From NCBI GenBank assembly GCA_964291295.2, contig OZ219754.1, positions 3,392,001 through 3,456,000 of the forward strand: a DNA stretch of 64,000 nucleotides, given 5' to 3'. A program made the translations under genes and the position numbers. Positions 1,381 to 19,112 of this stretch are shown piece by piece. Under the pieces are notes generated by a model. That model ran no database searches and was not told the DNA's origin. It saw nothing but the letters and a program-made list of their open reading frames with translations. Source of the stretch: an uncultured Candidatus Binatia bacterium (lineage in GTDB: Bacteria; Desulfobacterota; Binatia; UBA9968; JAJDTQ01). How positions within the stretch are numbered: position 1 is the first letter of the stretch; every line of letters begins with the position of its first letter.

Positions 1381-2098
1381 GGGAAAGGTCGCCGTGGTCA
1401 CCGGCGCCAGCCGCGGCATCGGGCGGGCGGTGGCCTTGGCCTTCGCCCGGGAGGGTGCGACCCTGGCCGTTGTCGGCGTCCGGGACCACGCCGCCCTCGA
1501 GTCGGTACGGAATGAACTGACGGCCCAGGGCGCCGAGAGCATCGCGCGGAGGGTGGACGTCGGCCGGCGGGCGGAGGTGGACGGATTGATGCGGGAGGTC
1601 GAGGAACGCTGGGGCCGCATCGACATTCTCGTCAACAACGCGGGGATCCTCACGCTCAGACGGTTCGAGGATATTGCCGAGGAGCAATGGGATGAGACCA
1701 TGCGGGTCCATCTCAAGGGCACCTTCAACGGCATGCAGGCGGTGCTGCCCCTCATGAAGCGGCAACGGTCGGGCAAGATCATCAACGTGACCGGCCCGGC
1801 GGCGCTGCGGCCCTCCCACGGCGTAGCCGACTACGCCAGCGCCAAGGGCGGCATCATCACGCTGACCTTCAATGTCGCCAACGAGATGAAGCCGCACAAC
1901 ATCCAGATCAACTGCATCTCGCCGGTAGCGGACACGCGCATGACCGACGCCATCGTCGAGTTCCGCCAACGCCAGGGGATTGCCGCCGCCCGGCCTGCAC
2001 CGGCACCCGCCGACGTCGTGGCACCCGCGTTCGTCTTCTTCGCGTCCGGCGACAGCGACTACATTACCGGAGAGGTGCTCGGGTTTCAGCGCAAGTGA
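1367..2098 (+). CDS. SDR family NAD(P)-dependent oxidoreductase (FabG-like)
   Basis: TGASRGIG, NNAG, YASAK motifs. Confidence 0.9.
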   Translation: MGRLEGKVAVVTGASRGIGRAVALAFAREGATLAVVGVRDHAALESVRNELTAQGAESIARRVDVGRRAEVDGLMREVEERWGRIDILVNNAGILTLRRFEDIAEEQWDETMRVHLKGTFNGMQAVLPLMKRQRSGKIINVTGPAALRPSHGVADYASAKGGIITLTFNVANEMKPHNIQINCISPVADTRMTDAIVEFRQRQGIAAARPAPAPADVVAPAFVFFASGDSDYITGEVLGFQRK

Positions 2099-2184
2099 CC
2101 CCTGTGGTTTCGAGCGACAGGGGTGGACAGACGTGGACAAGGGTTGCAGGATTGTTGAACCCGCACGGGAAACGAGGTGAACCC

Positions 2185-3174
2185 ATGCTCCGAAAATCAG
2201 CGGCGCTCTCAATGGCCGTCACCATGCTGACTGCGCTCACCGCGCTGGCGGCCGCGGCCCCGCCCATCGGCTTCCAGGCGGTGCCGCGGGACGCCTTCCC
2301 GGTCTTCGACGACCCCGGGATGCTCAGCGCCGCGGAAGCGGAGAAGCAGGCGGTCATCTTCGACCGGGACGTGGTCATCGGCGTGGCGCACAACGGCGAG
2401 GCCAAGGCGTATCCGATCACGATCATGGGCGTCCACGAACTCGGCAACGACACCATCGGAGGGGTGCCCATCGCCGTCTCCTGGTGACCGCTGTGCCAGA
2501 CGTCTATCGTGTATAGACGCCAACTCGACGACAGGGTGTTGCGCTTCGGGCACGCCGGGATTCTCTACGAGAATTCGTTCATCATGTACGACCGGCAGAC
2601 CGAGTCGCTCTGGGTCCATGTCACCGGCGAGGCCGCGTTCGGTCCGCTCAAGGGGAAACGGCTGGAGTTCATGCCCTCCACGGTGACGACCTGGGTCCAC
2701 TGGAAGAAGAACTATCCCCATACCAGGGTCTTGCCGGGCTACCGGCGCGGCGGTTTCATGGGAACCTACATGGGCCCCTTCCAGAGCAACCTCCTGGGCC
2801 TGGCTGTGGTGATCCGGCTCAAGGCCAAGCTCTATCCATACGAGGCGCTCAAGGAGCGGAACGTGGTCAACGACGAGTTCAACGAGGCGAAGGTCGTGGT
2901 GTACTATTCGCCGGGCGACTCCACGGCAACGGCGTGGCGCCGGGAATTCGACGACCGCGTCCTCACCTTCACGCAGTCGGAACGCAAGGATGCGCAAGGC
3001 AACGCGCTGTTGCACGACAAGGAGACGGGGAGCCTGTGGTCATGGCTGCGTGGAGAAGCCGTGGAGGGACCCCTCAAGGGGCGCCAGTTGCGGCAACTCC
3101 TGTACAACCCGATCCTGAACGACCGGTTTGCCGCCTTCTATCCGGGGGCGCCCGTGTTCGAGGCCGTGCCGTAA
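2185..3174 (+). CDS. DUF3179 domain selenoprotein, secreted; TGA 2485-2487 read as Sec
   Basis: ATG 2185 with GAGGTG RBS and signal peptide. ORFs 2095-2487 and 2509-3174 are in the same frame; the join reads VSW-TGA-PLCQTS where the family has CPLC. Also YP..IM..HE..ND, MYDRQTESLW and WKKNYPHT motifs. Confidence 0.85.
2501..2519 (+). promoter_or_regulatory. Putative bacterial SECIS hairpin
   Basis: Perfect stem CGTCTAT/ATAGACG with loop CGTGT, starting 13 nt after the in-frame TGA. Confidence 0.7.
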
Positions 3175-3310
3175 TTGGCGGATCCCTCAGAAATCCGCTA
3201 AACATGCGGAATCCCCGGCGGTCGGCGCGGGATCCCGCGACTGCGGGGCGAAGAGCGATGCAAGGTTGAAAGTCGGTGCGAGAGCCGGTTCGAAGGTCGG
3301 TTCGAGATAC

Positions 3311-4387
3311 GTGAGCGGAACTGCCGAATATCTCCGGGAAGCTCGGGAGCAAAAGGGGCTGACCCTGGAACAGGTGGAGGAGGCAACGCGGATTCCGCGT
3401 TACTACCTCGAGATCCTGGAGGGTGGCGGAGACGACCGTCTGGTTTCGGACCGTCTCTACATGGTCCATTTTCTCCGCAACTATGCCGCTTTCCTCGAGG
3501 TCCAGGAGGAGACCCTGGCGGCTCGGTTCCTTCACGAGAACCGGCAACCGAAAACCACTCCGATCATCCCCACCCGGAAGCCCCGGTCATGGAAGGCCGT
3601 CCTCACGGCCACGCCGACCCTGTTGCTCGCCATCGGTATCGGCGCCTATCTGTACGATCCGGTGCTCCTCAGCCTGGTCGGCAAGCCGACGCAGCATCTC
3701 GTGACGAGGTCCGACCGCGCACCGACGCGGCCGGAAACAACGCAGCCGCCGGCCCCGGCCGCTCCATCCCGGGCCGACGATGCCGAGAGCTCGGTCCTGC
3801 AACCCGAGGCCAACGAAACGGATCCATCGACACCCAGGCTGGTGGCGAACCCGCCGGGTTCGGAGCCGGAGCCGGCGTCTGAAGCCGCAGCCGCCGGATC
3901 AGGGTCGGCTCCAACGGACTTGGGCGTATCGTCGCCCACCTCGTCCCTCAACCCGGCTGCTCCGCTCCCACCCGCACTGGAGACGACCGCAACCGACGCT
4001 GCCACCTCACGCGCCCCCGCGTCCACCACGGCCCCTGATGTTGCGGCGTTGCAAGGCGGCGAAACGGCGACGGAGACCACGGCCCCCGGCGGGCCGCAGT
4101 CGCCGCGGGAATCACTCGCGACCACCGCTGCCGAGCCTTCGGCGGGCCATCGCCTTACCATCTTTGCCGAGGAAAAGGCCTGGCTGAGGGTGTGGGTCGA
4201 CGACGAGGGGTTCAAGGACATGATGCTGGACCCGGAAGAAACCCTGACGCTGTCCGCGCAGACCCACTTCGTCATCACCTTCGGCAACGCCGGCGGCGTG
4301 CGTCTCGTGTTGAACGGGGAGGAGCTTCCCCCGGCAGGCAGGTCCGGACAGGTGGTGCGCAATTTCAGGATTCCGCCGGACTCCTAG
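3311..4387 (+). CDS. rodZ: RodZ-like protein (N-terminal HTH, TM helix, C-terminal DUF4115)
   Basis: LREAREQKGLTLEQVEEATRI HTH, one TM, Pro/Ala/Thr linker, C-terminal WLRV...FGNAGGV. Confidence 0.8.
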   Translation: MSGTAEYLREAREQKGLTLEQVEEATRIPRYYLEILEGGGDDRLVSDRLYMVHFLRNYAAFLEVQEETLAARFLHENRQPKTTPIIPTRKPRSWKAVLTATPTLLLAIGIGAYLYDPVLLSLVGKPTQHLVTRSDRAPTRPETTQPPAPAAPSRADDAESSVLQPEANETDPSTPRLVANPPGSEPEPASEAAAAGSGSAPTDLGVSSPTSSLNPAAPLPPALETTATDAATSRAPASTTAPDVAALQGGETATETTAPGGPQSPRESLATTAAEPSAGHRLTIFAEEKAWLRVWVDDEGFKDMMLDPEETLTLSAQTHFVITFGNAGGVRLVLNGEELPPAGRSGQVVRNFRIPPDS

Positions 4388-7079: not shown

Positions 7080-7108
7080 TTGACTACCACAAGAACGTGT
7101 AGTAGGTA
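7080..7108 (+). promoter_or_regulatory. Putative sigma70 promoter with overlapping inverted repeat (leaderless XRE transcript)
   Basis: TTGACT-17 nt-TAGGTA ending 6 nt before ATG 7115; imperfect inverted repeat ACTACCAC...GTGTAGT in the spacer. Confidence 0.4.
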
Positions 7109-7114
7109 TGACAC

Positions 7115-7468
7115 ATGACTCATTTTGGCTCCACCATCCGCGCCATCCGCGAACGCCTGCGCGAGGACGACCGGCGCTATTCCGTGCGCCAGGTCGCCGG
7201 GCGCGTCGGCATCGAGCCGGCGTATCTGAGCAAGATCGAACGCGGGGAGGTGGCGCCGCCCTCGGAGGCGACCACGGTGAGGCTCGCGAAGGAGCTCGGC
7301 CAGGATCCCGATGTCATGCTGGCACTCACGGGAAAGGTGTCCGCCGATCTGCAGGCCATCATCCGCAAGCGACCGCGCCTGTTCGCGGATCTGATCCGTC
7401 AGTTGAAGGAAGCGCCGGACGAGGCGGTCCTGCAGGTGGTGCGCAAAGTGCGCGAAGGCAACTGGTAA
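7115..7468 (+). CDS. XRE family HTH transcriptional regulator
   Basis: SVRQVAGRVGIEPAYLSKIERGEVAPP. Confidence 0.9.
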   Translation: MTHFGSTIRAIRERLREDDRRYSVRQVAGRVGIEPAYLSKIERGEVAPPSEATTVRLAKELGQDPDVMLALTGKVSADLQAIIRKRPRLFADLIRQLKEAPDEAVLQVVRKVREGNW

Positions 7469-7520
7469 GCAGAACGATGGGTGGGAAGGAACGTCCGTCC
7501 ACGGACAAGGAGGAACGACC

Positions 7521-8513
7521 ATGATCATGCTCGAAGACGACTGTCTGGAGTTCCGTTTTCCGGAGGTGCATGAGGCCGCGCGCTGCGGCATCGGATTCCA
7601 GCGCACCCTGCGTATCCCGGACGACGGGGGCGATTATCCGCTGTCGCCGGGCCTGGGTTCGTTTCCGCTGCGGCATCTGGACGACTACGCCGTGCGCCTG
7701 CCGGAGTCGTGGCGGGTGCGGGGCGGCGTGATCGCGCCGATGCACCAGGCCGAGGCGCTGTGGATCAACTTCCATTCGGACTATCCCTTCGCCGTGAAGG
7801 TGGCCACCGGGAAGATCTGCGCGATCACCGGCGATTCCTGGGTCGACCGGCTGAACCGGGACCCGCAGGACTACGCGATGCTGCCCAGGCAGCCCTGGCT
7901 CGGCGGCTATTGCGTCGAGAAAGGCGTCGTCCGCCAGTTTGTTGCCATGCCGCTTGGCGAGGGATACACGGTTGAAGAACAGTTGACCGGGGCCGCGGTC
8001 CACGGCGGGGTGCAGATCGTGGCCTACCCCATGAAGGCCGAACGCCATGAGGCGCTCCAATCGAAGCGGCACGTGGCCAGACACCTCTCCGTGAGACGGT
8101 ATTCGGCCGCCATGGAGGCACCCATGGGTCTGGCACCGGGCGGCCGGATGAAGCAGGAGATCTACGACGACCCCTACGGGCTGGATGTCTGGGACCAGCG
8201 GCACGGCAGCCGCTGCTTCGTCTCACTGCTCAACTCCGCCCAGTGGATGGCGGTGACCGGAGAGCGGCCTCCCACCGAGCCGCCCACGGCGCAGGACTAC
8301 ACCGCCTGCGGCCTGCCTTGGTTCGGCTACTATGGCGGCGATACGCGCGCCGTGGCCGGCAGCGACAAGCTGCGGGGGCTCAAGAGCGTCGCCCAGCAAA
8401 CCGCGGCCACCGGGCAAGGGCCGCTTCCGGACAACGAGACGATTGCCACCCCGCATGTGATCGGGCTCGGGAAAGCCCGCCCGGTGCGGGAAAGTGCCGG
8501 CGATCAGGCTTGA
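7521..8513 (+). CDS. Conserved hypothetical protein (FQRTLRIPDD family)
   Basis: AAGGAGG RBS; conserved-looking blocks FQRTLRIPDD, PMHQAEALW, QPWL, RQFVAMPLG, YTACGLPWF. Confidence 0.75.
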   Translation: MIMLEDDCLEFRFPEVHEAARCGIGFQRTLRIPDDGGDYPLSPGLGSFPLRHLDDYAVRLPESWRVRGGVIAPMHQAEALWINFHSDYPFAVKVATGKICAITGDSWVDRLNRDPQDYAMLPRQPWLGGYCVEKGVVRQFVAMPLGEGYTVEEQLTGAAVHGGVQIVAYPMKAERHEALQSKRHVARHLSVRRYSAAMEAPMGLAPGGRMKQEIYDDPYGLDVWDQRHGSRCFVSLLNSAQWMAVTGERPPTEPPTAQDYTACGLPWFGYYGGDTRAVAGSDKLRGLKSVAQQTAATGQGPLPDNETIATPHVIGLGKARPVRESAGDQA

Positions 8514-8541
8514 ACCTGAAGGAACCTGGCACACGGGCCTG

Positions 8542-8874
8542 TCATCGCCGGACCGATTGCCGCCGAGGGAGAGCGACATGACGACGGAACAGCTGCTTCC
8601 GAACGTCGATTCGATCTTCGCGGCTGCGGACCTGTGCGAGATCGTAGCTCGTCTGGCGGCGGAGCCAGAACTCCGCATTGGAACAGCCCGCCTTTTCCAG
8701 GCGGATCGCCATTTCCGGAGAAATACCCGCGTGGCCATTGAGAACCCGAGACAGCGTATGCCGGGCGACGCCCAGCATGCGCGCCGCTTCGGTCACGCTC
8801 AATCCGAGCGGCTCCAGGCAGTTCTCTCGGATACTGCGCCCAGGATGCGGGGGATTCATCATCGCCATGTTCAT
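8542..8874 (-). CDS. higA: HigA family antitoxin
   Basis: NPPHPG...[14 protein letters not shown]...ISPEMAIRL...[11 protein letters not shown]. Confidence 0.9.
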
Positions 8875-8882
8875 GCCTTCTG

Positions 8883-9161
8883 TTAGTGGTAGTCGGTCAG
8901 ATCGACATCGTAAACGTCGCCTTCCTCAAGACGAAATACCACTCGCCAGTTTCCGGAAACTGAAATGCTCCAGTACCCCTTGAGACCGCCTTTCAGCGGG
9001 TGAAGCCGGTAGCCCGGCAAATCGAGGTCCGAGAGCCTGCAGGCATCGTCGAGGTCGGCCAGCACCAGAGCGACACGATCCCGCAAGTCGGATCCCACCC
9101 TGCTCGTATCTCCGCATTCGTACATCCGCCTGAGACCTCGATGACGAAAGCTCCGAATCAT
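8883..9161 (-). CDS. higB: HigB/RelE family toxin
   Basis: [10 protein letters not shown]...[11 protein letters not shown]...[14 protein letters not shown]...DYH, upstream of higA. Confidence 0.92.
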
Positions 9162-9166
9162 CACGG

Positions 9167-9195
9167 ACTGTACCGCATACCGGCACGCATGGCAA
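9167..9195 (-). promoter_or_regulatory. higBA promoter/operator (leaderless)
   Basis: Minus strand TTGCCA-17 nt-TACAGT, 5 nt before the ATG; imperfect palindrome GTACCG-CATAC-CGGCAC over the spacer. Confidence 0.55.
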
Positions 9196-9326
9196 TCTGA
9201 GCCGCAGGACAATCCCGCGCGGTGGGTTTGTCCTTCCCTGTCGGGTCTTGCAGGTGTGACTTTGCGAGTGTGATGTTCTATAAACGGAACCTCCCGGTGA
9301 TTCGGGACTGACTTTTGCGTCAAGTG

Positions 9327-9686
9327 ACTCCGGTGTTTCACGACACCGCCCCGCGGGTCCGCGCCCATGTGCTGCTGTGCATGCTGGCCTGTTACGTGGA
9401 ATGACACATGCGACAGAAACTGGCCCCGCTGCTGTTCGAGGAAGACGATCCAGACGCTGCCGGTTTCCATCGTGGCACCGGCGCAAGTGCCGGAATCGCG
9501 CGGGCCAAGGCCCGCGGCAAGCGCAGCGACTCGCCGCACAGCTTCCGCACCCTGCTTGACGACCTGGCGACACTCACCCTGAATACGGTCCAGCCCCGCT
9601 TGCCTGACGCCAGGCCGTTCGAGGCCACCACCCGGCCCACCCCCCTGCAAGGCAAGGCCCACGATTTGTTCGGCGTGCGCCCGTAG
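9327..9686 (+). pseudogene. IS1634-family transposase C-terminal remnant
   Basis: LRPVFH..RVRAHVLLCMLACYVE*HMRQKLAPLLFEEDD...HSFRTLLDDLATL...PTPLQ; internal stop and no N-terminus. Confidence 0.75.
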
Positions 9687-10243
9687 CGTTCCCGACAGCG
9701 ATTCGCGGATTCTTCCATTACCTCCGGGAAACCAGTGCCTCGGATCAACTCAGCTCTGGAAGTTCCGTATGATTGGCGTTGTGCAGACGGCGAGGTTGGT
9801 GGAGCTGGACAGGGGGTGTGCGGAGTTGGCGCGCCGTGTGGAGTCGCGGGCAGTGTCGGCGAAGGCGGCGTGCAGGCCAGGGTCTCGGCACGTGCCGGGC
9901 AGTCTGGCCCGAGCAGGGAGAAGCGGATCAAGCCGCCCTGTGAGAAGCCTCGGACGAGCGGTCCCATCATTCGGGCCGGGCTCCCGCTTCCCGTGCCGAC
10001 GTCCGGGCCAACGACAAACCCCCGCCCGGACACGGTGAACGCACCCGGATGGGCGAATGAAATCGACCCGGGAATTCCCAAAGCCCCACAGGCTGCCGGC
10101 CCCACGCCTTCGCGACGAACACCCCGCCCTTCAGGCGAAGAACTCCGGCCATGCCGCAGGTGGGGCGTACGGAACAGGGTGACCTTTGATCGAGGCCTTG
10201 CCGCCGCCGGTTCCGGGTCGATTCGAACAAGCGGCCGTCCGCG

Positions 10244-14643: not shown

Positions 14644-17412
14644 TCAGCGGTTCGAGGGCCGCCGCGAGAGCGGCTCCACCCTTGCCGCGCAGAGCTTGTA
14701 CTCGGGAATCTTGCCGTAGGGATCCAGGGCCGGGTTGGTCAGAAGGTTGACCGCCGCCTCGGCAAAACAGAACGGAATGAAGACGCAGCCGTCGGGGACG
14801 GCGCTGTCGGCCCGCGACTTGATCTCGATGACGCCGCGGCGGGTGGAGACGCGCACCGGCTCCCCGGGAGTCACGCCCAGCCCGCGCAGTTCCTTGGGAG
14901 ACAGGCTGGCCACCGCCTCCGGCTCGAGTTCGTCCAGCACCGCCGCGCGGCGGGTGATGGCGCCCGTGTGCCAGTGCTCCAACTGGCGCCCGGTGGTCAG
15001 GATCATCGGGAATGCGTCGTCGGGCTGCTCGTCCGGCGGTATGATGTCCGCGGGCACGAGCCGGCCCCTTCCCGTATCCGTGGGAAAGCCGTCGCCGAAC
15101 ACCACCTCGGTGCCCGGCTGATCCGGGCCCGGGCACGGATAGGTCACCGAGCTGTCCCGTTGCAGCCGTTCCCAGGTTATGTGGTCCAGGGACGGCATGA
15201 TCTGCTTCATCTCGGCGAACACGTCGGCCGGCCCGGCGTAGTCCCAATCAAGGCCCATGCGGCGCGCCAGCTCCTGGATGATCCACCAGTCCTGCCGGAC
15301 TCCGGCCGGCGGCCGCAAGGCGGCCCGCCCCATCTGCACCTGGCGGTTGCTGTTGGTGACGGTGCCGGTCTTTTCCGGCCATGCCGAAGCCGGCAGCACC
15401 ACGTCCGCATGAAACGCCGTTTCGGTCAGGAAGATCTCCTGCACCACCAGGTGTTCCAGCCTGGCCAGTCCTTCCCGCGCGTGTTGGACATCGGGGTCCG
15501 ACATGGCCGGGTTCTCCCCCATGATGTAGATGCCCTTGATGCGGCCGGCGTGCACGGCGTCCATGATCTCCATCACCGTAAGCCCTTGCCGCGGGTCCAG
15601 GGCCATGTCCCAGACTTCCTCGAAACGCCGGCGCGTCTCCACCACCTCCACGGAGCGGTAGTCCGGATAGAACATCGGGATGAGGCCCGCGTCGGAGGCG
15701 CCCTGCACGTTGTTCTGGCCGCGCAACGGGTGGAGCCCGGTGCCGCGGCGGCCCACCTGGCCCGTGATCAACGCCAGGGCGATGAGGCAGCGGGCGTTGT
15801 CGGTGCCGTGGACGTGCTGGGAGATGCCCATGCCCCAGAAGATCATCGCCGCCCTGGCGCGCGCATAGAGACGCGCCACCGAACGGAGGGTGCCCGGGTC
15901 GATGCCGCAGACTTCCGACATGGCCTCGGGAGTGAACGCCGCCACGTGTCGTCTCAGCTCCTCGAAACCTTCCGTGTGGGCGGCCACGTAGTCGTGGTCG
16001 TAGAGCGCTTCGTCCACGATGACGTGGAGCAGCGCGTTGAGCAGGGCCACGTCGGTGCCCGGCGTGAACCGAAGCATCCAGTCGGCGTGCCGGTGCAGGG
16101 CATGACCCCGGGGATCCATCACGATGAGCGTCGCACCGCGCCGGGCGGCCTGCTTGAAATAGGTGGCCGCCACCGGATGGTTCTCCGTCGGATTGGCGCC
16201 GATGACGACGATGACATCCGAGTCCTCGCAGGCGGTGAAGGGCGCGGTCACCGCGGCGGAGCCGATCCCTTCCATCAGCGCCGCCACCGAGGAGGCATGG
16301 CAGAGGCGGGTGCAATGGTCCACGTTGTTGGTGCCGAAGCCCGTGCGCACGAGCTTCTGAACGAGGTAGGCCTCCTCGTTGGAGCCCTTGGCGGACCCGT
16401 AGCCCGCCAGGGCGTTGCCGCCGTCCCGGTCCCGTATCCGCCGGAATCCCGCAGCCGCGGCGTCCAATGCCTCTTCCCAGGTCGCCTCGCGGAAGTGGTC
16501 GCGGGGATCCGCCGGGTCCACGTCGGCCAAGGCATCCTTGGGCGCGTCGCGGCGTCGAATCAGCGGGACGGTGAGCCGGTGGCGGTGGCGGACGTAGTCG
16601 AAGCCGAACCGACCCTTGACGCACAGGCGGCCACGGTTGGACGGTCCGTCGCGTCCCTCCACCGCCACGATGGCGTTGTCCTTGACGCGATAGCCGATCT
16701 GGCAACCCACACCACAATAGGGGCAGACGCTGGGAACCTCGGCGAGGACCTCCCTCTTGTCCACCCCGGCCTCATCCACCAGCGCCGCGGGCATCAGGGC
16801 GCCGGTGGGACACGCCTGCACGCACTCGCCACAGGCCACGCAGGTGCTCTCGCCCATGGGATCGTCGAAGTCGAACACCACCTTGGCGTCACTGCCGCGC
16901 CCGGCCATGCCCATGACATCGTTCACCTGTACCTCGCGGCAGGCGCGCACGCACAGGGTGCAGTGAATGCAGGCGTCCAGCGCCACCCGCATGGCCGGGT
17001 GGCTGGCGTCGGCGGCGGGAGCCGGACGAGCCGGGAAGCGGCTGGCGGTCACCTCCAGCCGCTCGGCCCACTGCCACAGGCGGGACCGTGCATCGTGGGC
17101 CGCCTCGCGTCCGGGCTGGTCCGTCACCAAAAGCTCCAGCACCATCCGGCGCGCCCTCCGGGCGCGTTCGCTGTCCGTGCGCACCATCATGCCGGCGGTG
17201 GGGCGCCGGATGCACGAAGCCGCCAACACCCGCTCCCCTTCCACTTCCACCATGCACGCCCGGCAGTTTCCGTCGGGCCTGTAGCCGGACCGCGGGTCGT
17301 GGCACAGGTGCGGCAGCCGGGTGCCGTTCCGTTCCGCCACCTGCCAGAGGGTCTCGCCGCCGGCCGCCTCCACTTCCCGGTCGTCGAGAGTGAACCGCAC
17401 ACGCCCGCTCAC
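14644..17412 (-). CDS. fdhF: NAD-dependent formate dehydrogenase alpha subunit (Cys-type, Mo/W-bisPGD)
   Basis: N-terminal 2Fe-2S and 4Fe-4S motifs, CPYCGVGC, LCVKGRFG, HCTRLCHASS, LRGQNNVQG; GTGA overlap with the upstream gene. Confidence 0.92.
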   Translation of the reverse strand: MSGRVRFTLDDREVEAAGGETLWQVAERNGTRLPHLCHDPRSGYRPDGNCRACMVEVEGERVLAASCIRRPTAGMMVRTDSERARRARRMVLELLVTDQPGREAAHDARSRLWQWAERLEVTASRFPARPAPAADASHPAMRVALDACIHCTLCVRACREVQVNDVMGMAGRGSDAKVVFDFDDPMGESTCVACGECVQACPTGALMPAALVDEAGVDKREVLAEVPSVCPYCGVGCQIGYRVKDNAIVAVEGRDGPSNRGRLCVKGRFGFDYVRHRHRLTVPLIRRRDAPKDALADVDPADPRDHFREATWEEALDAAAAGFRRIRDRDGGNALAGYGSAKGSNEEAYLVQKLVRTGFGTNNVDHCTRLCHASSVAALMEGIGSAAVTAPFTACEDSDVIVVIGANPTENHPVAATYFKQAARRGATLIVMDPRGHALHRHADWMLRFTPGTDVALLNALLHVIVDEALYDHDYVAAHTEGFEELRRHVAAFTPEAMSEVCGIDPGTLRSVARLYARARAAMIFWGMGISQHVHGTDNARCLIALALITGQVGRRGTGLHPLRGQNNVQGASDAGLIPMFYPDYRSVEVVETRRRFEEVWDMALDPRQGLTVMEIMDAVHAGRIKGIYIMGENPAMSDPDVQHAREGLARLEHLVVQEIFLTETAFHADVVLPASAWPEKTGTVTNSNRQVQMGRAALRPPAGVRQDWWIIQELARRMGLDWDYAGPADVFAEMKQIMPSLDHITWERLQRDSSVTYPCPGPDQPGTEVVFGDGFPTDTGRGRLVPADIIPPDEQPDDAFPMILTTGRQLEHWHTGAITRRAAVLDELEPEAVASLSPKELRGLGVTPGEPVRVSTRRGVIEIKSRADSAVPDGCVFIPFCFAEAAVNLLTNPALDPYGKIPEYKLCAARVEPLSRRPSNR

Positions 17413-19112
17413 GACAGCTCCTCCCGGAAGTAGCGGAATGCGCAACGCACCGAGTTGGGAGCGGCCTGGCCGAGGCCGCAGATGGATGCGTCCGCCATCA
17501 CCTCGCCCAGCGCCTCCAGCAACGGCTCATCCCACGAAGGCCGTTCCAGGAGCGCCACCGCCTTCTCCGTGCCGGTACGGCACGGGGTGCACTGCCCGCA
17601 GCTCTCGTGTCGGAAGAACCGCATCAGATTGCGCACCACGGCCCGGACGTCGTCCTGGTCGCTCAACACCACCACGCCGTGGGAACCCACGAAACAGCCG
17701 TGCGGCTCCAGAGAGCCGAACCGGAGCGGAAGGTCGGCCATGGAGGCGGGCAGCATCCCGCCCGAGGCGCCGCCGGGAAGGTAGCCCTTCAAGCGGTGGC
17801 CGGGCCGCATGCCGCCGCAGTACGCCTCCACCAGGTCACGCAGCGTGATCCCGGCGGGAGCAATCTTCACGCCCGGTTGTGCCACCCGGCCCGATACCGA
17901 CCAGGCATGCAGGCCGACGCCGCCGTTGCGGCCCTGGGCCGCGAACCATTCCGGTCCCCGCTCGACGATATCCCGGATCCAGTAAAGGGTCTCGACGTTC
18001 TGCACCAGGGTGGGGCGCCCGAACAGGCCGGTCTCGGCGACATAGGGCGGCCGGTGCCGCGGCAGCCCGCGCTTGCCCTCGATGCTCTCGATCATGGCCG
18101 ACTCTTCGCCGCAGATATAGGCTCCGGCGCCCCGGCGCAGATGGAACGCCACGTGGGCGTCGAGTCCCGCTTGCCGCAGCCGGGGCCACTCCCGCGACAG
18201 GATCTCCCGAATCTCGGCGTACTCGTCCCGCAGATAGATGTAGACGGCTTCCGCTTCCACCGTCCAGGCCGCCACCAGCGCGCCTTCCAGGAACCGGTGC
18301 GGATCGCTCTCCATGAAATAGCGGTCCTTGAAGGTGCCCGGCTCGCCCTCGTCCGCGTTCACGGTCATGAGCCTGGGGCCGGGATGGCCGCGCACGGTCT
18401 GCCACTTGCGGCCGGTGGGGAAGCCGGCGCCACCCAAGCCGCGCAGGCCCGACGCCACGACCTTGTCCAGCACCTCCTCCCGCGTGCGTCCGTCTCCGAG
18501 ACACGCCTTCAGCAACGCATAACCACCCTCCGCCGCGTACGCGTCATAGTCCTTGTACGGCGGCGGCGCCGCCTCGGTCTGCCGCCGCCGGACCGCCGCC
18601 GCCACCCGGTCCGCGGTGGCTTCGAACAGCGTGTGCCGCTCCACCCGGGCCACCGGGGCGCGGTCGCAACCGCCCATGCACGGCCCCGGCGTCACCCGGA
18701 CGCCCTTCCCCAGCGCACCGGGAAGCTCCGCCAGCAGCCCGGGCGCCCCCATCATCTCGCACACGAGCCCGTCGCACACCCTCACGGTCATGTCGGGCAC
18801 CGGCGCCGCCGCCTCCCGGGCGACCTCGAAGTGGGCATAGAAAGTCGCCACCTCGTAGACCTCCGCCAGGGCCAGGCGCATCTCCTCCGCCAACGCCGCC
18901 AGGTGAGCCGCGGTCAACACATGGTAGCGGTCCTGGAGAAGGTGAAGGTGCTCGATCAGGAGGTCACGGCGCCGCGGCCGATCCCCCAGCAAGGCCCGCA
19001 CCTGCTCCAACGCCTCGGGTTCGACCTGGCGCCCTCTCGGGCGGTTGCGCCCGCGGCCGCGCCCGGAGCCGGGATGCCGGCGCCGCGGTGTCGTCGACTG
19101 CGGGTCCGCCAT
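17409..19112 (-). CDS. Formate dehydrogenase diaphorase subunit (NuoE+NuoF-like fusion)
   Basis: EVATFYAHF, GLRGLGGAGFPTGRKW, NADEGEPGTFKDR, YICGEES, ESCGQCTPCR, ICGLG. Confidence 0.92.
   Translation of the reverse strand: MADPQSTTPRRRHPGSGRGRGRNRPRGRQVEPEALEQVRALLGDRPRRRDLLIEHLHLLQDRYHVLTAAHLAALAEEMRLALAEVYEVATFYAHFEVAREAAAPVPDMTVRVCDGLVCEMMGAPGLLAELPGALGKGVRVTPGPCMGGCDRAPVARVERHTLFEATADRVAAAVRRRQTEAAPPPYKDYDAYAAEGGYALLKACLGDGRTREEVLDKVVASGLRGLGGAGFPTGRKWQTVRGHPGPRLMTVNADEGEPGTFKDRYFMESDPHRFLEGALVAAWTVEAEAVYIYLRDEYAEIREILSREWPRLRQAGLDAHVAFHLRRGAGAYICGEESAMIESIEGKRGLPRHRPPYVAETGLFGRPTLVQNVETLYWIRDIVERGPEWFAAQGRNGGVGLHAWSVSGRVAQPGVKIAPAGITLRDLVEAYCGGMRPGHRLKGYLPGGASGGMLPASMADLPLRFGSLEPHGCFVGSHGVVVLSDQDDVRAVVRNLMRFFRHESCGQCTPCRTGTEKAVALLERPSWDEPLLEALGEVMADASICGLGQAAPNSVRCAFRYFREELS

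Follow-up and report, generated by a model that had tools for sequence, protein, structure and literature searches.

The 64,000-nucleotide stretch of an uncultured Candidatus Binatia bacterium analysed here (contig OZ219754.1, positions 3,392,001 to 3,456,000; the window) includes, at 2185–3174, a single coding sequence for a DUF3179 (PF11376) protein of 329 amino acids that very likely contains selenocysteine (Sec) at residue 101, as assigned from translation, Pfam and comparison with relatives. Window coordinates refer to the forward strand unless marked otherwise. The frame contains only one internal TGA (2485–2487, codon 101; context IAVSW-U-PLCQTS) and closes with TAA; the two in-frame open reading frames (ORFs) parted by a lone TGA in the original prediction were thus verified as one frame of 329 codons. 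The Pfam match spans the TGA (residues 35–185, 237.4 bits against a cut-off of 27, E 3.1e-70), and the read-through product belongs to DUF3179 as proposed. A Shine-Dalgarno-like sequence GAGGTG (2174–2179) lies 5 nt ahead of the ATG. A sigma-70 promoter was not found within 1900–3400, and the two terminator-like sites, one of them upstream of the gene at 2017–2029, were at chance level.

Standard gene callers split this one gene in two and report in place of the whole a 221-aa piece (2509–3174), an annotation artefact as judged by the ORF list and database matches. The 120 best database matches listed are all 201–242 aa long and cover 61–68% of the query. The recoding amounts to an annotation fix: in databases, the closest relatives appear as pieces some 220 residues long, from which the active-site motif is missing. 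No NCBIfam model covers the protein, and only one DUF3179 gene was found in the host genome. The N-terminus has the features of a cleavable signal peptide (residues ~1–24, 2185–2256), with a basic start, a hydrophobic core and an Ala-rich end visible by eye and in the hydropathy profile, in agreement with the predicted export of the product. This segment includes neither a lipoprotein Cys nor a twin-arginine motif, and residues 5–21 were modelled as a helix at low pLDDT. Cys104 (2494–2496) is the sole Cys of the protein and, from sequence and conservation, the likely resolving residue of the UxxC motif.

A scan of GTDB genomes gave 77 DUF3179 loci, of which 76 align at codon 101. This codon is TGA in 41 loci, TGT in 19 and TGC in 16, and nothing else; a separate count of 71, 19 and 16, respectively, over 106 rows includes duplicates. 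The TGA hence aligns with the conserved first Cys of the family (41 TGA against 35 Cys), as had been anticipated. Of the 41 TGA loci, 25 are from close relatives with titles such as Candidatus Binatia, the remaining 16 include SAR324, Entotheonella, Planctomycetota, Chloroflexota and Acidimicrobiales, and all together they come from at least six phylum-level groups. Among 98 full-length rows, the first motif position is Cys in 94 (the row of the window itself being counted as C) and Ser in three. The second Cys of the motif is replaced in 7/76 loci, by Val or Ala in five TGA loci and by Thr in two Cys loci.

Within the genus, the gene was found in 26 of the 27 other genomes with 80–85% identity and one TGA in each; no PF11376 match was found in the 27th (G013, 2.7 Mb, 98% complete). 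Two near-identical public assemblies, one of which may be the source of this DNA, retain the TGA as well; TGC or TGT at the site would have spoken against Sec. In two RNA libraries of relatives (85–97% alike), contigs span the TGA, which is unchanged among the rows listed (40 of 116); such contigs cannot show transcription. Of the sequencing runs listed, 22 of 24 contain less than half of the words, and no habitat was inferred from them.

The apical hairpin of a bacterial Sec insertion sequence (SECIS) was assigned at 2501–2519 by folding and covariation. It reads CGTCTAT-CGTGT-ATAGACG, with seven Watson-Crick pairs (2501–2507 with 2513–2519) and the loop CGUGU (2508–2512), and starts 13 nt past the TGA, exactly the perfect 7-bp hairpin with a GU-containing loop that had been described. 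The published bacterial model has an apical loop of 3–9 nt located 16–37 nt from the UGA, an upper stem of 4–16 bp and a G among the first two loop positions (PMC13188914, Fig 2A legend). The window hairpin fits this geometry, having a 5-nt loop with G at position 2, a 7-bp stem and a spacing of 20 nt. Set against the energy criterion of ≤ −7.5 kcal/mol, the hairpin is borderline: alone it gives −6.9 kcal/mol (z −1.84; 9/200 shuffles as stable) and 2485–2545 with the hairpin formed gives −14.8 kcal/mol, and the −7.5 kcal/mol fold of 2485–2530 is an alternative pairing rather than the hairpin. None of four longer windows folded around it was significant, and an Rfam search over 2000–3400 returned no SECIS family, its two matches being due to chance. 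Of 21,989 TGA triplets sampled from the host genome, 1.2% are followed by a perfect 7-bp stem that has G in loop bases 1–2 at 16–37 nt; a loose rule (at least 4 bp, GU allowed) is satisfied after 69% of them. By itself, the hairpin is modest evidence for recoding.

It is the comparative evidence, namely conservation and covariation, and not its own stability that places the hairpin beyond chance. Codons 106–112 are identical across all 27 genus sequences compared and form the longest invariant run of the gene, even including codons that are rare in the 66% GC host genome (TCT 3.4%, AGA 2.6%). In 21 distinct TGA homologues, 93.9% of the cells pair and 30 cells are changed on both sides (0/500 shuffles), with 25–45% paired in slid-register controls; in 21 Cys homologues the same register gives 38.8%, similar to their own slid controls. 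At least six of the seven stem pairs are present in 40/41 TGA loci versus 0/35 Cys loci; in these comparisons the sequence of the window itself supplied the structure, and the related sequences are not independent. As judged by these alignments, the hairpin behaves as a bacterial SECIS, with compensatory changes in the Sec forms and not in the Cys forms.

The original prediction implied Sec genes elsewhere in the genome, and all of them were found over cut-offs: a selA-selB-selD cluster at C1:687502–691807 (687502–688836, 688924–690810 and 690884–691807) and, away from it, a tRNA-Sec with the UCA anticodon at C1:3122135–3122225. The host SelD carries an in-frame TGA of its own (AG-U-AAK). Every one of the 27 other genus genomes has selA over cut-off. 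Among distant genomes, it is present in 16/16 with the TGA form versus 1/34 with the Cys form, the latter representing 34 of the 35 Cys loci (the remaining one shares its assembly with another locus) and including many Bacteroidota kin. In same-order genomes with a TGA-bearing DUF3179 paralogue, selA was found in 9/10. Conservation of the TGA, the codon alignment and the co-occurrence with selA thus support, together with the covarying hairpin, the prediction of a selenoprotein, and the UGA of the DUF3179 gene is very likely read as Sec. None of the outcomes named beforehand as refuting the prediction was observed.

In an unrooted tree of 80 rows with the Sec/Cys column masked, the Sec label has to change six times, strong branches forcing at least two of these changes; in rows from the protein library a 'C' could mask a Sec, and row P0124 is a mis-cut fragment. 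The only claim made from this tree is that the Sec forms do not appear in it as a demonstrated single clade. The window protein groups with Binatia rows, which makes a Candidatus Binatia host most likely, and sits in a Sec clade that also takes in SAR324 and Entotheonella sequences and is well supported (100/99). Five Planctomycetota loci (L065, L066, L068, L073 and L098) form a Sec clade of their own with strong support; their motif is U-P-L-V or U-P-L-A, without the second Cys. Four of them are short single-repeat forms, and reviews list UxxC/T only. Two same-order genomes (G034 and G036) each have several DUF3179 paralogues, of which most contain TGA and one has no stop.

The protein consists of two repeats, residues 61–183 (2365–2733) and 202–325 (2788–3159), which hhalign relates to each other with a probability of 99.96%. 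Repeat 1 holds the UxxC motif and repeat 2 has no Cys. For each repeat, the predicted model and a fold search gave the three-sheet Rieske topology, overlaid on Rieske chains over 91–97 residues with 2.4–3.8 Å rmsd and 6–16% identity. Profile comparison by hhalign with Rieske families, using shallow Rieske alignments of 7–30 rows, gave 0.55–4.2%. A search of PDB sequences with the protein had 0 matches, and a 127-row profile gave only three lectin matches at E about 1. In the mostly beta model, UxxC lies on the turn joining strands 94–101 and 106–111. The positions mapped to the second Rieske ligand box are Asp and Thr, with no Cys or His there in 120–127 rows; the window protein includes neither C-x-H nor C-x-x-H, and U101 and C104 are its sole S/Se donors. 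His84 and Glu85 (2434–2439), candidate active-site or metal-ligand residues, are conserved in repeat 1 alone (72/98 and 90/98 full-length rows, respectively). On the strength of the models, the product most probably folds into a tandem of Rieske-like domains that hold no iron-sulfur cluster.

Location of U-P-L-C at Rieske ligand box 1 was considered and rejected, because strand order and a weak alignment place box 1 near R112–L114, with UxxC on the preceding hairpin. A thioredoxin-fold oxidoreductase, with CxxC at a helix start, does not agree with the model, in which UxxC is on a turn between strands; a thioredoxin-fold chain was not noticed among the fold-search matches listed, which does not prove its absence. 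In a BFVD search with the whole model, an uncharacterised giant-virus protein was matched, A0A1V0SD44 of Indivirus ILV1 (E 8e-08, TM 0.52 by target length, 13% identity), as was a second one, A0A1V0SF28 (probability 1.00, E 0.06). The same-order genome G028 (4.5 Mb) has 93 Rieske (PF00355) matches versus 9–19 in the others searched.

Each repeat shares its predicted topology with dioxygenase ferredoxins (3gce, 3dqy, 2qpz and 1vm9), PetC3 (5cxm) and the NirD-like nitrite reductase small subunit (3c0d). The tail D-x-x-T-x-S-x-W...G-x-A-x-x-G-P-L of the window protein echoes the Rieske C-P-x-H-G-x-x-F...G-x-x-x-x-P-P. NirD is presumably a precedent for a Rieske fold without a cluster. In contrast to Rieske domains, the window protein lacks cluster ligands at the mapped positions, is built of tandem repeats with extra helices, carries UxxC on another hairpin, is only 6–16% identical to them and has an export signal without twin arginine. 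The fold, the position of Sec on a separate hairpin and the His84/Glu85 pair name residues to mutate and argue against an iron-sulfur cofactor.

A DUF3179 selenoprotein family (UxxC/T) is listed as 'predicted with high confidence' in Table 1 of PMC13188914 and also in PMC9312934, and both credit it to Zhang and Gladyshev 2007 (PMC1976440). In the parts of PMC1976440 covered, families OS_HP1-3 and others are named and the name DUF3179 is not used; PMC9230427, as far as covered, merely tabulates a DUF3179 gene. Like the listed members, the window gene encodes a protein of the same Pfam family with UxxC at the first Cys of CPLC, one Sec and a SECIS just downstream; it has no family-level difference from them and is without a lipoprotein Cys. 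Thus, this is not a new selenoprotein family but a further member of a listed one, and the gene itself is ordinary. In the portions of the open literature searched, neither a fold or function for DUF3179 nor a Rieske link was found, and the fold may be recorded in InterPro, ECOD or TED. The one point not found stated elsewhere is the predicted tandem, cluster-less Rieske-like fold, which would hold family-wide and is not specific to this locus. At 50% identity, DUF3179 falls into more than 9,000 clusters; sequence searches gave no solved structure for it, and the predicted fold gives a first handle on how this large family might work.

Taken together, we favour, with a probability of about 0.5, a Sec-containing, exported, cluster-less Rieske-like selenol/thiol redox catalyst of the periplasm. 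From established SelB–SECIS biology, it is nearly certain that SelB with Sec-tRNA would bind the hairpin and put Sec at residue 101. The chain would then be exported unfolded via the general secretion pathway and cleaved to a soluble protein, which is predicted to fold without a cluster and to present U-P-L-C on a beta-hairpin turn of repeat 1, away from the former cluster site. The Sec101 selenolate may attack a substrate whose sulfur is oxidised to a disulfide, sulfenic acid or sulfoxide, whether on a small molecule or on a protein of the envelope. Cys104 would resolve the adduct, giving a selenenylsulfide that an exported thioredoxin of the TlpA/ResA type, itself fed by CcdA, could reduce again. 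Nucleophile and resolver are so assigned because the first motif position is near invariant and the second replaceable, and the odds that the catalysis and the relay step proceed in this way are about even as judged from sequence.

Known relays from CcdA/DsbD through TlpA/ResA/DsbE to a client such as MsrAB resemble the proposed system in having an exported C/UxxC protein, natural redoxin fusions, and CcdA with exported redoxins in the genome. Redoxin-domain fusions were found in 5/24 long DUF3179 homologues, picked by length from 150 listed, and the host genome encodes CcdA and exported redoxins. The window protein differs from relay clients in the lack of an operon link at the locus, and neither a thioredoxin nor an Msr fold emerged from the searches run. 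More tentatively, DUF3179 may be a duplicated Rieske scaffold that lost its cluster and acquired a new catalytic hairpin bearing Cys or Sec, giving a class of cofactor-free, non-thioredoxin envelope oxidoreductases that swap Cys and Sec repeatedly. If the redox role is true, a non-thioredoxin fold would be added to the bacterial selenoproteins working outside the cytoplasm.

Several observations weigh against the redox relay or the recoding, or limit the evidence for them. A redox-relay gene is not among the neighbours at the window locus, where synteny is confined to the genus, and clustering of neighbourhoods at 78 loci revealed no neighbour common beyond close kin, save an SDR in one Planctomycetota locus. 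An exported Sec-TlpA is present in 24/28 genus genomes and missing from three that have DUF3179. The loop G is also found in 33/35 Cys copies, a caveat on SECIS specificity. Finally, the genome G029 is without detectable selA, selB, selD or tRNA-Sec though its DUF3179 paralogue (C192; L173:1040–1160, reverse strand) has both the TGA and an intact hairpin; this paralogue lies on a 6.5-kb contig, and a gap in the assembly, mis-binning of this contig or a recent loss could each account for the exception.

G029 and the splitting of the gene by gene callers, with all 120 listed matches being of 201–242 aa, would be explained if the TGA were a real stop, whether in a pseudogene, between two genes or from a sequencing error, or encoded Trp or Gly under another code. 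However, TGA recurs at this codon in at least six phylum-level groups and swaps with Cys alone, the hairpin covaries, TGA tracks selA, and a stop here would cut repeat 1 in half; TGA also serves as a normal terminator in the host genome, ending for instance the upstream SDR gene (2096–2098). This explanation is hence largely refuted and extremely improbable. It is very unlikely, too, that the repeats retain an iron-sulfur or other metal cluster with Sec101 and Cys104 as ligands and serve as an electron carrier. The Rieske fold predicted for both repeats would suit such a role, but just two S/Se donors are available, these align to a different hairpin, and the second-box positions lack Cys and His. 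Cluster-loaded Rieske proteins use Tat, whereas the signal peptide is without a twin arginine.

Two further explanations accept a true selenoprotein and question its chemistry. Sec101 and Cys104 might join His84 and Glu85 as ligands of a soft metal or metalloid (Cu, Zn, Hg or As), making the protein a periplasmic chaperone, sink or sensor and not a thiol catalyst. C-P-x-C on a hairpin turn looks like a metal-binding knuckle, and His84 and Glu85 are conserved solely in the Cys-bearing repeat. A fusion to an ArsP_1 permease domain (below cut-off by match size, E 1.5e-9) occurs in one long homologue, and exported Sec proteins have been proposed as heavy-metal binders in the SAO system, in the part of that report covered (10.1101/2022.07.06.499078). 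Yet there are merely two S/Se donors per chain, the second Cys gives way to Val, Ala or Thr in some loci, and redoxin fusions number 5/24 against 1/24 related to metals, so that metal binding is considered unlikely. It is rather unlikely that the protein is an envelope binding or scaffold protein in which the Sec101–Cys104 bond is a structural or regulatory switch. The stalks (fn3, vWA, FlgD or ChitinaseA_N) on which 6/24 long homologues ride, like surface-binding domains, point in that direction, as do Ser at the first position in 3/98 homologues and the retention of the fold by repeat 2 without any Cys. Sec, on the other hand, is costly and nearly always catalytic in characterised proteins, as is established and stated in the covered part of PMC13188914, and conservation is higher at the first motif position than at the second, contrary to what would be expected of a structural disulfide. 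The fused homologues noted are P0122, P0164, P0167, P0168, P0169 and P0260, with fn3, vWA, ChitinaseA_N or FlgD-Ig stalks or the ArsP_1 permease domain.

Elsewhere in the window, genus synteny stops after a conserved six-gene block, and small HTH genes follow in 7100–9700, a region that includes a 330-aa ORF (7521–8513) without a strong NCBIfam match, what we take to be a HigA/HigB-type pair, and presumably a transposase remnant. The segment 14644–21820 (reverse strand) encodes a formate dehydrogenase alpha subunit, a NuoF-like partner, an aldehyde ferredoxin oxidoreductase-like protein and a MobA-like protein. The formate dehydrogenase (14644–17445, reverse strand) passes TIGR01591, reads DHCTRLCHASS and has no internal stop; it is therefore Cys-type, as first described, in a Sec-making genome.

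At least 12 further likely selenoprotein genes were noted in the host genome: an exported TlpA/ResA-like, two OsmC-like, a deiodinase-like, two GrdB-like, a PrdB-like, a rhodanese, three peroxiredoxin-like and a UGSC gene. A genome-wide TGA scan was loose, giving 112 candidates of 41,205 and missing SelD and one peroxiredoxin that were found by family search; among 13 candidates checked, ten belong to known Sec-bearing families and three are junctions of two genes. Five of nine host redoxin matches contain a TGA. The further TGA codons are located on C1 at 811321 (−), 1445608 (+), 1531554 (−), 1898265 (−), 2133288 (−), 2237299 (−), 2335327 (+), 2549519 (+), 2912462 (−), 3006484 (+), 3108529 (+) and 3204387 (−).
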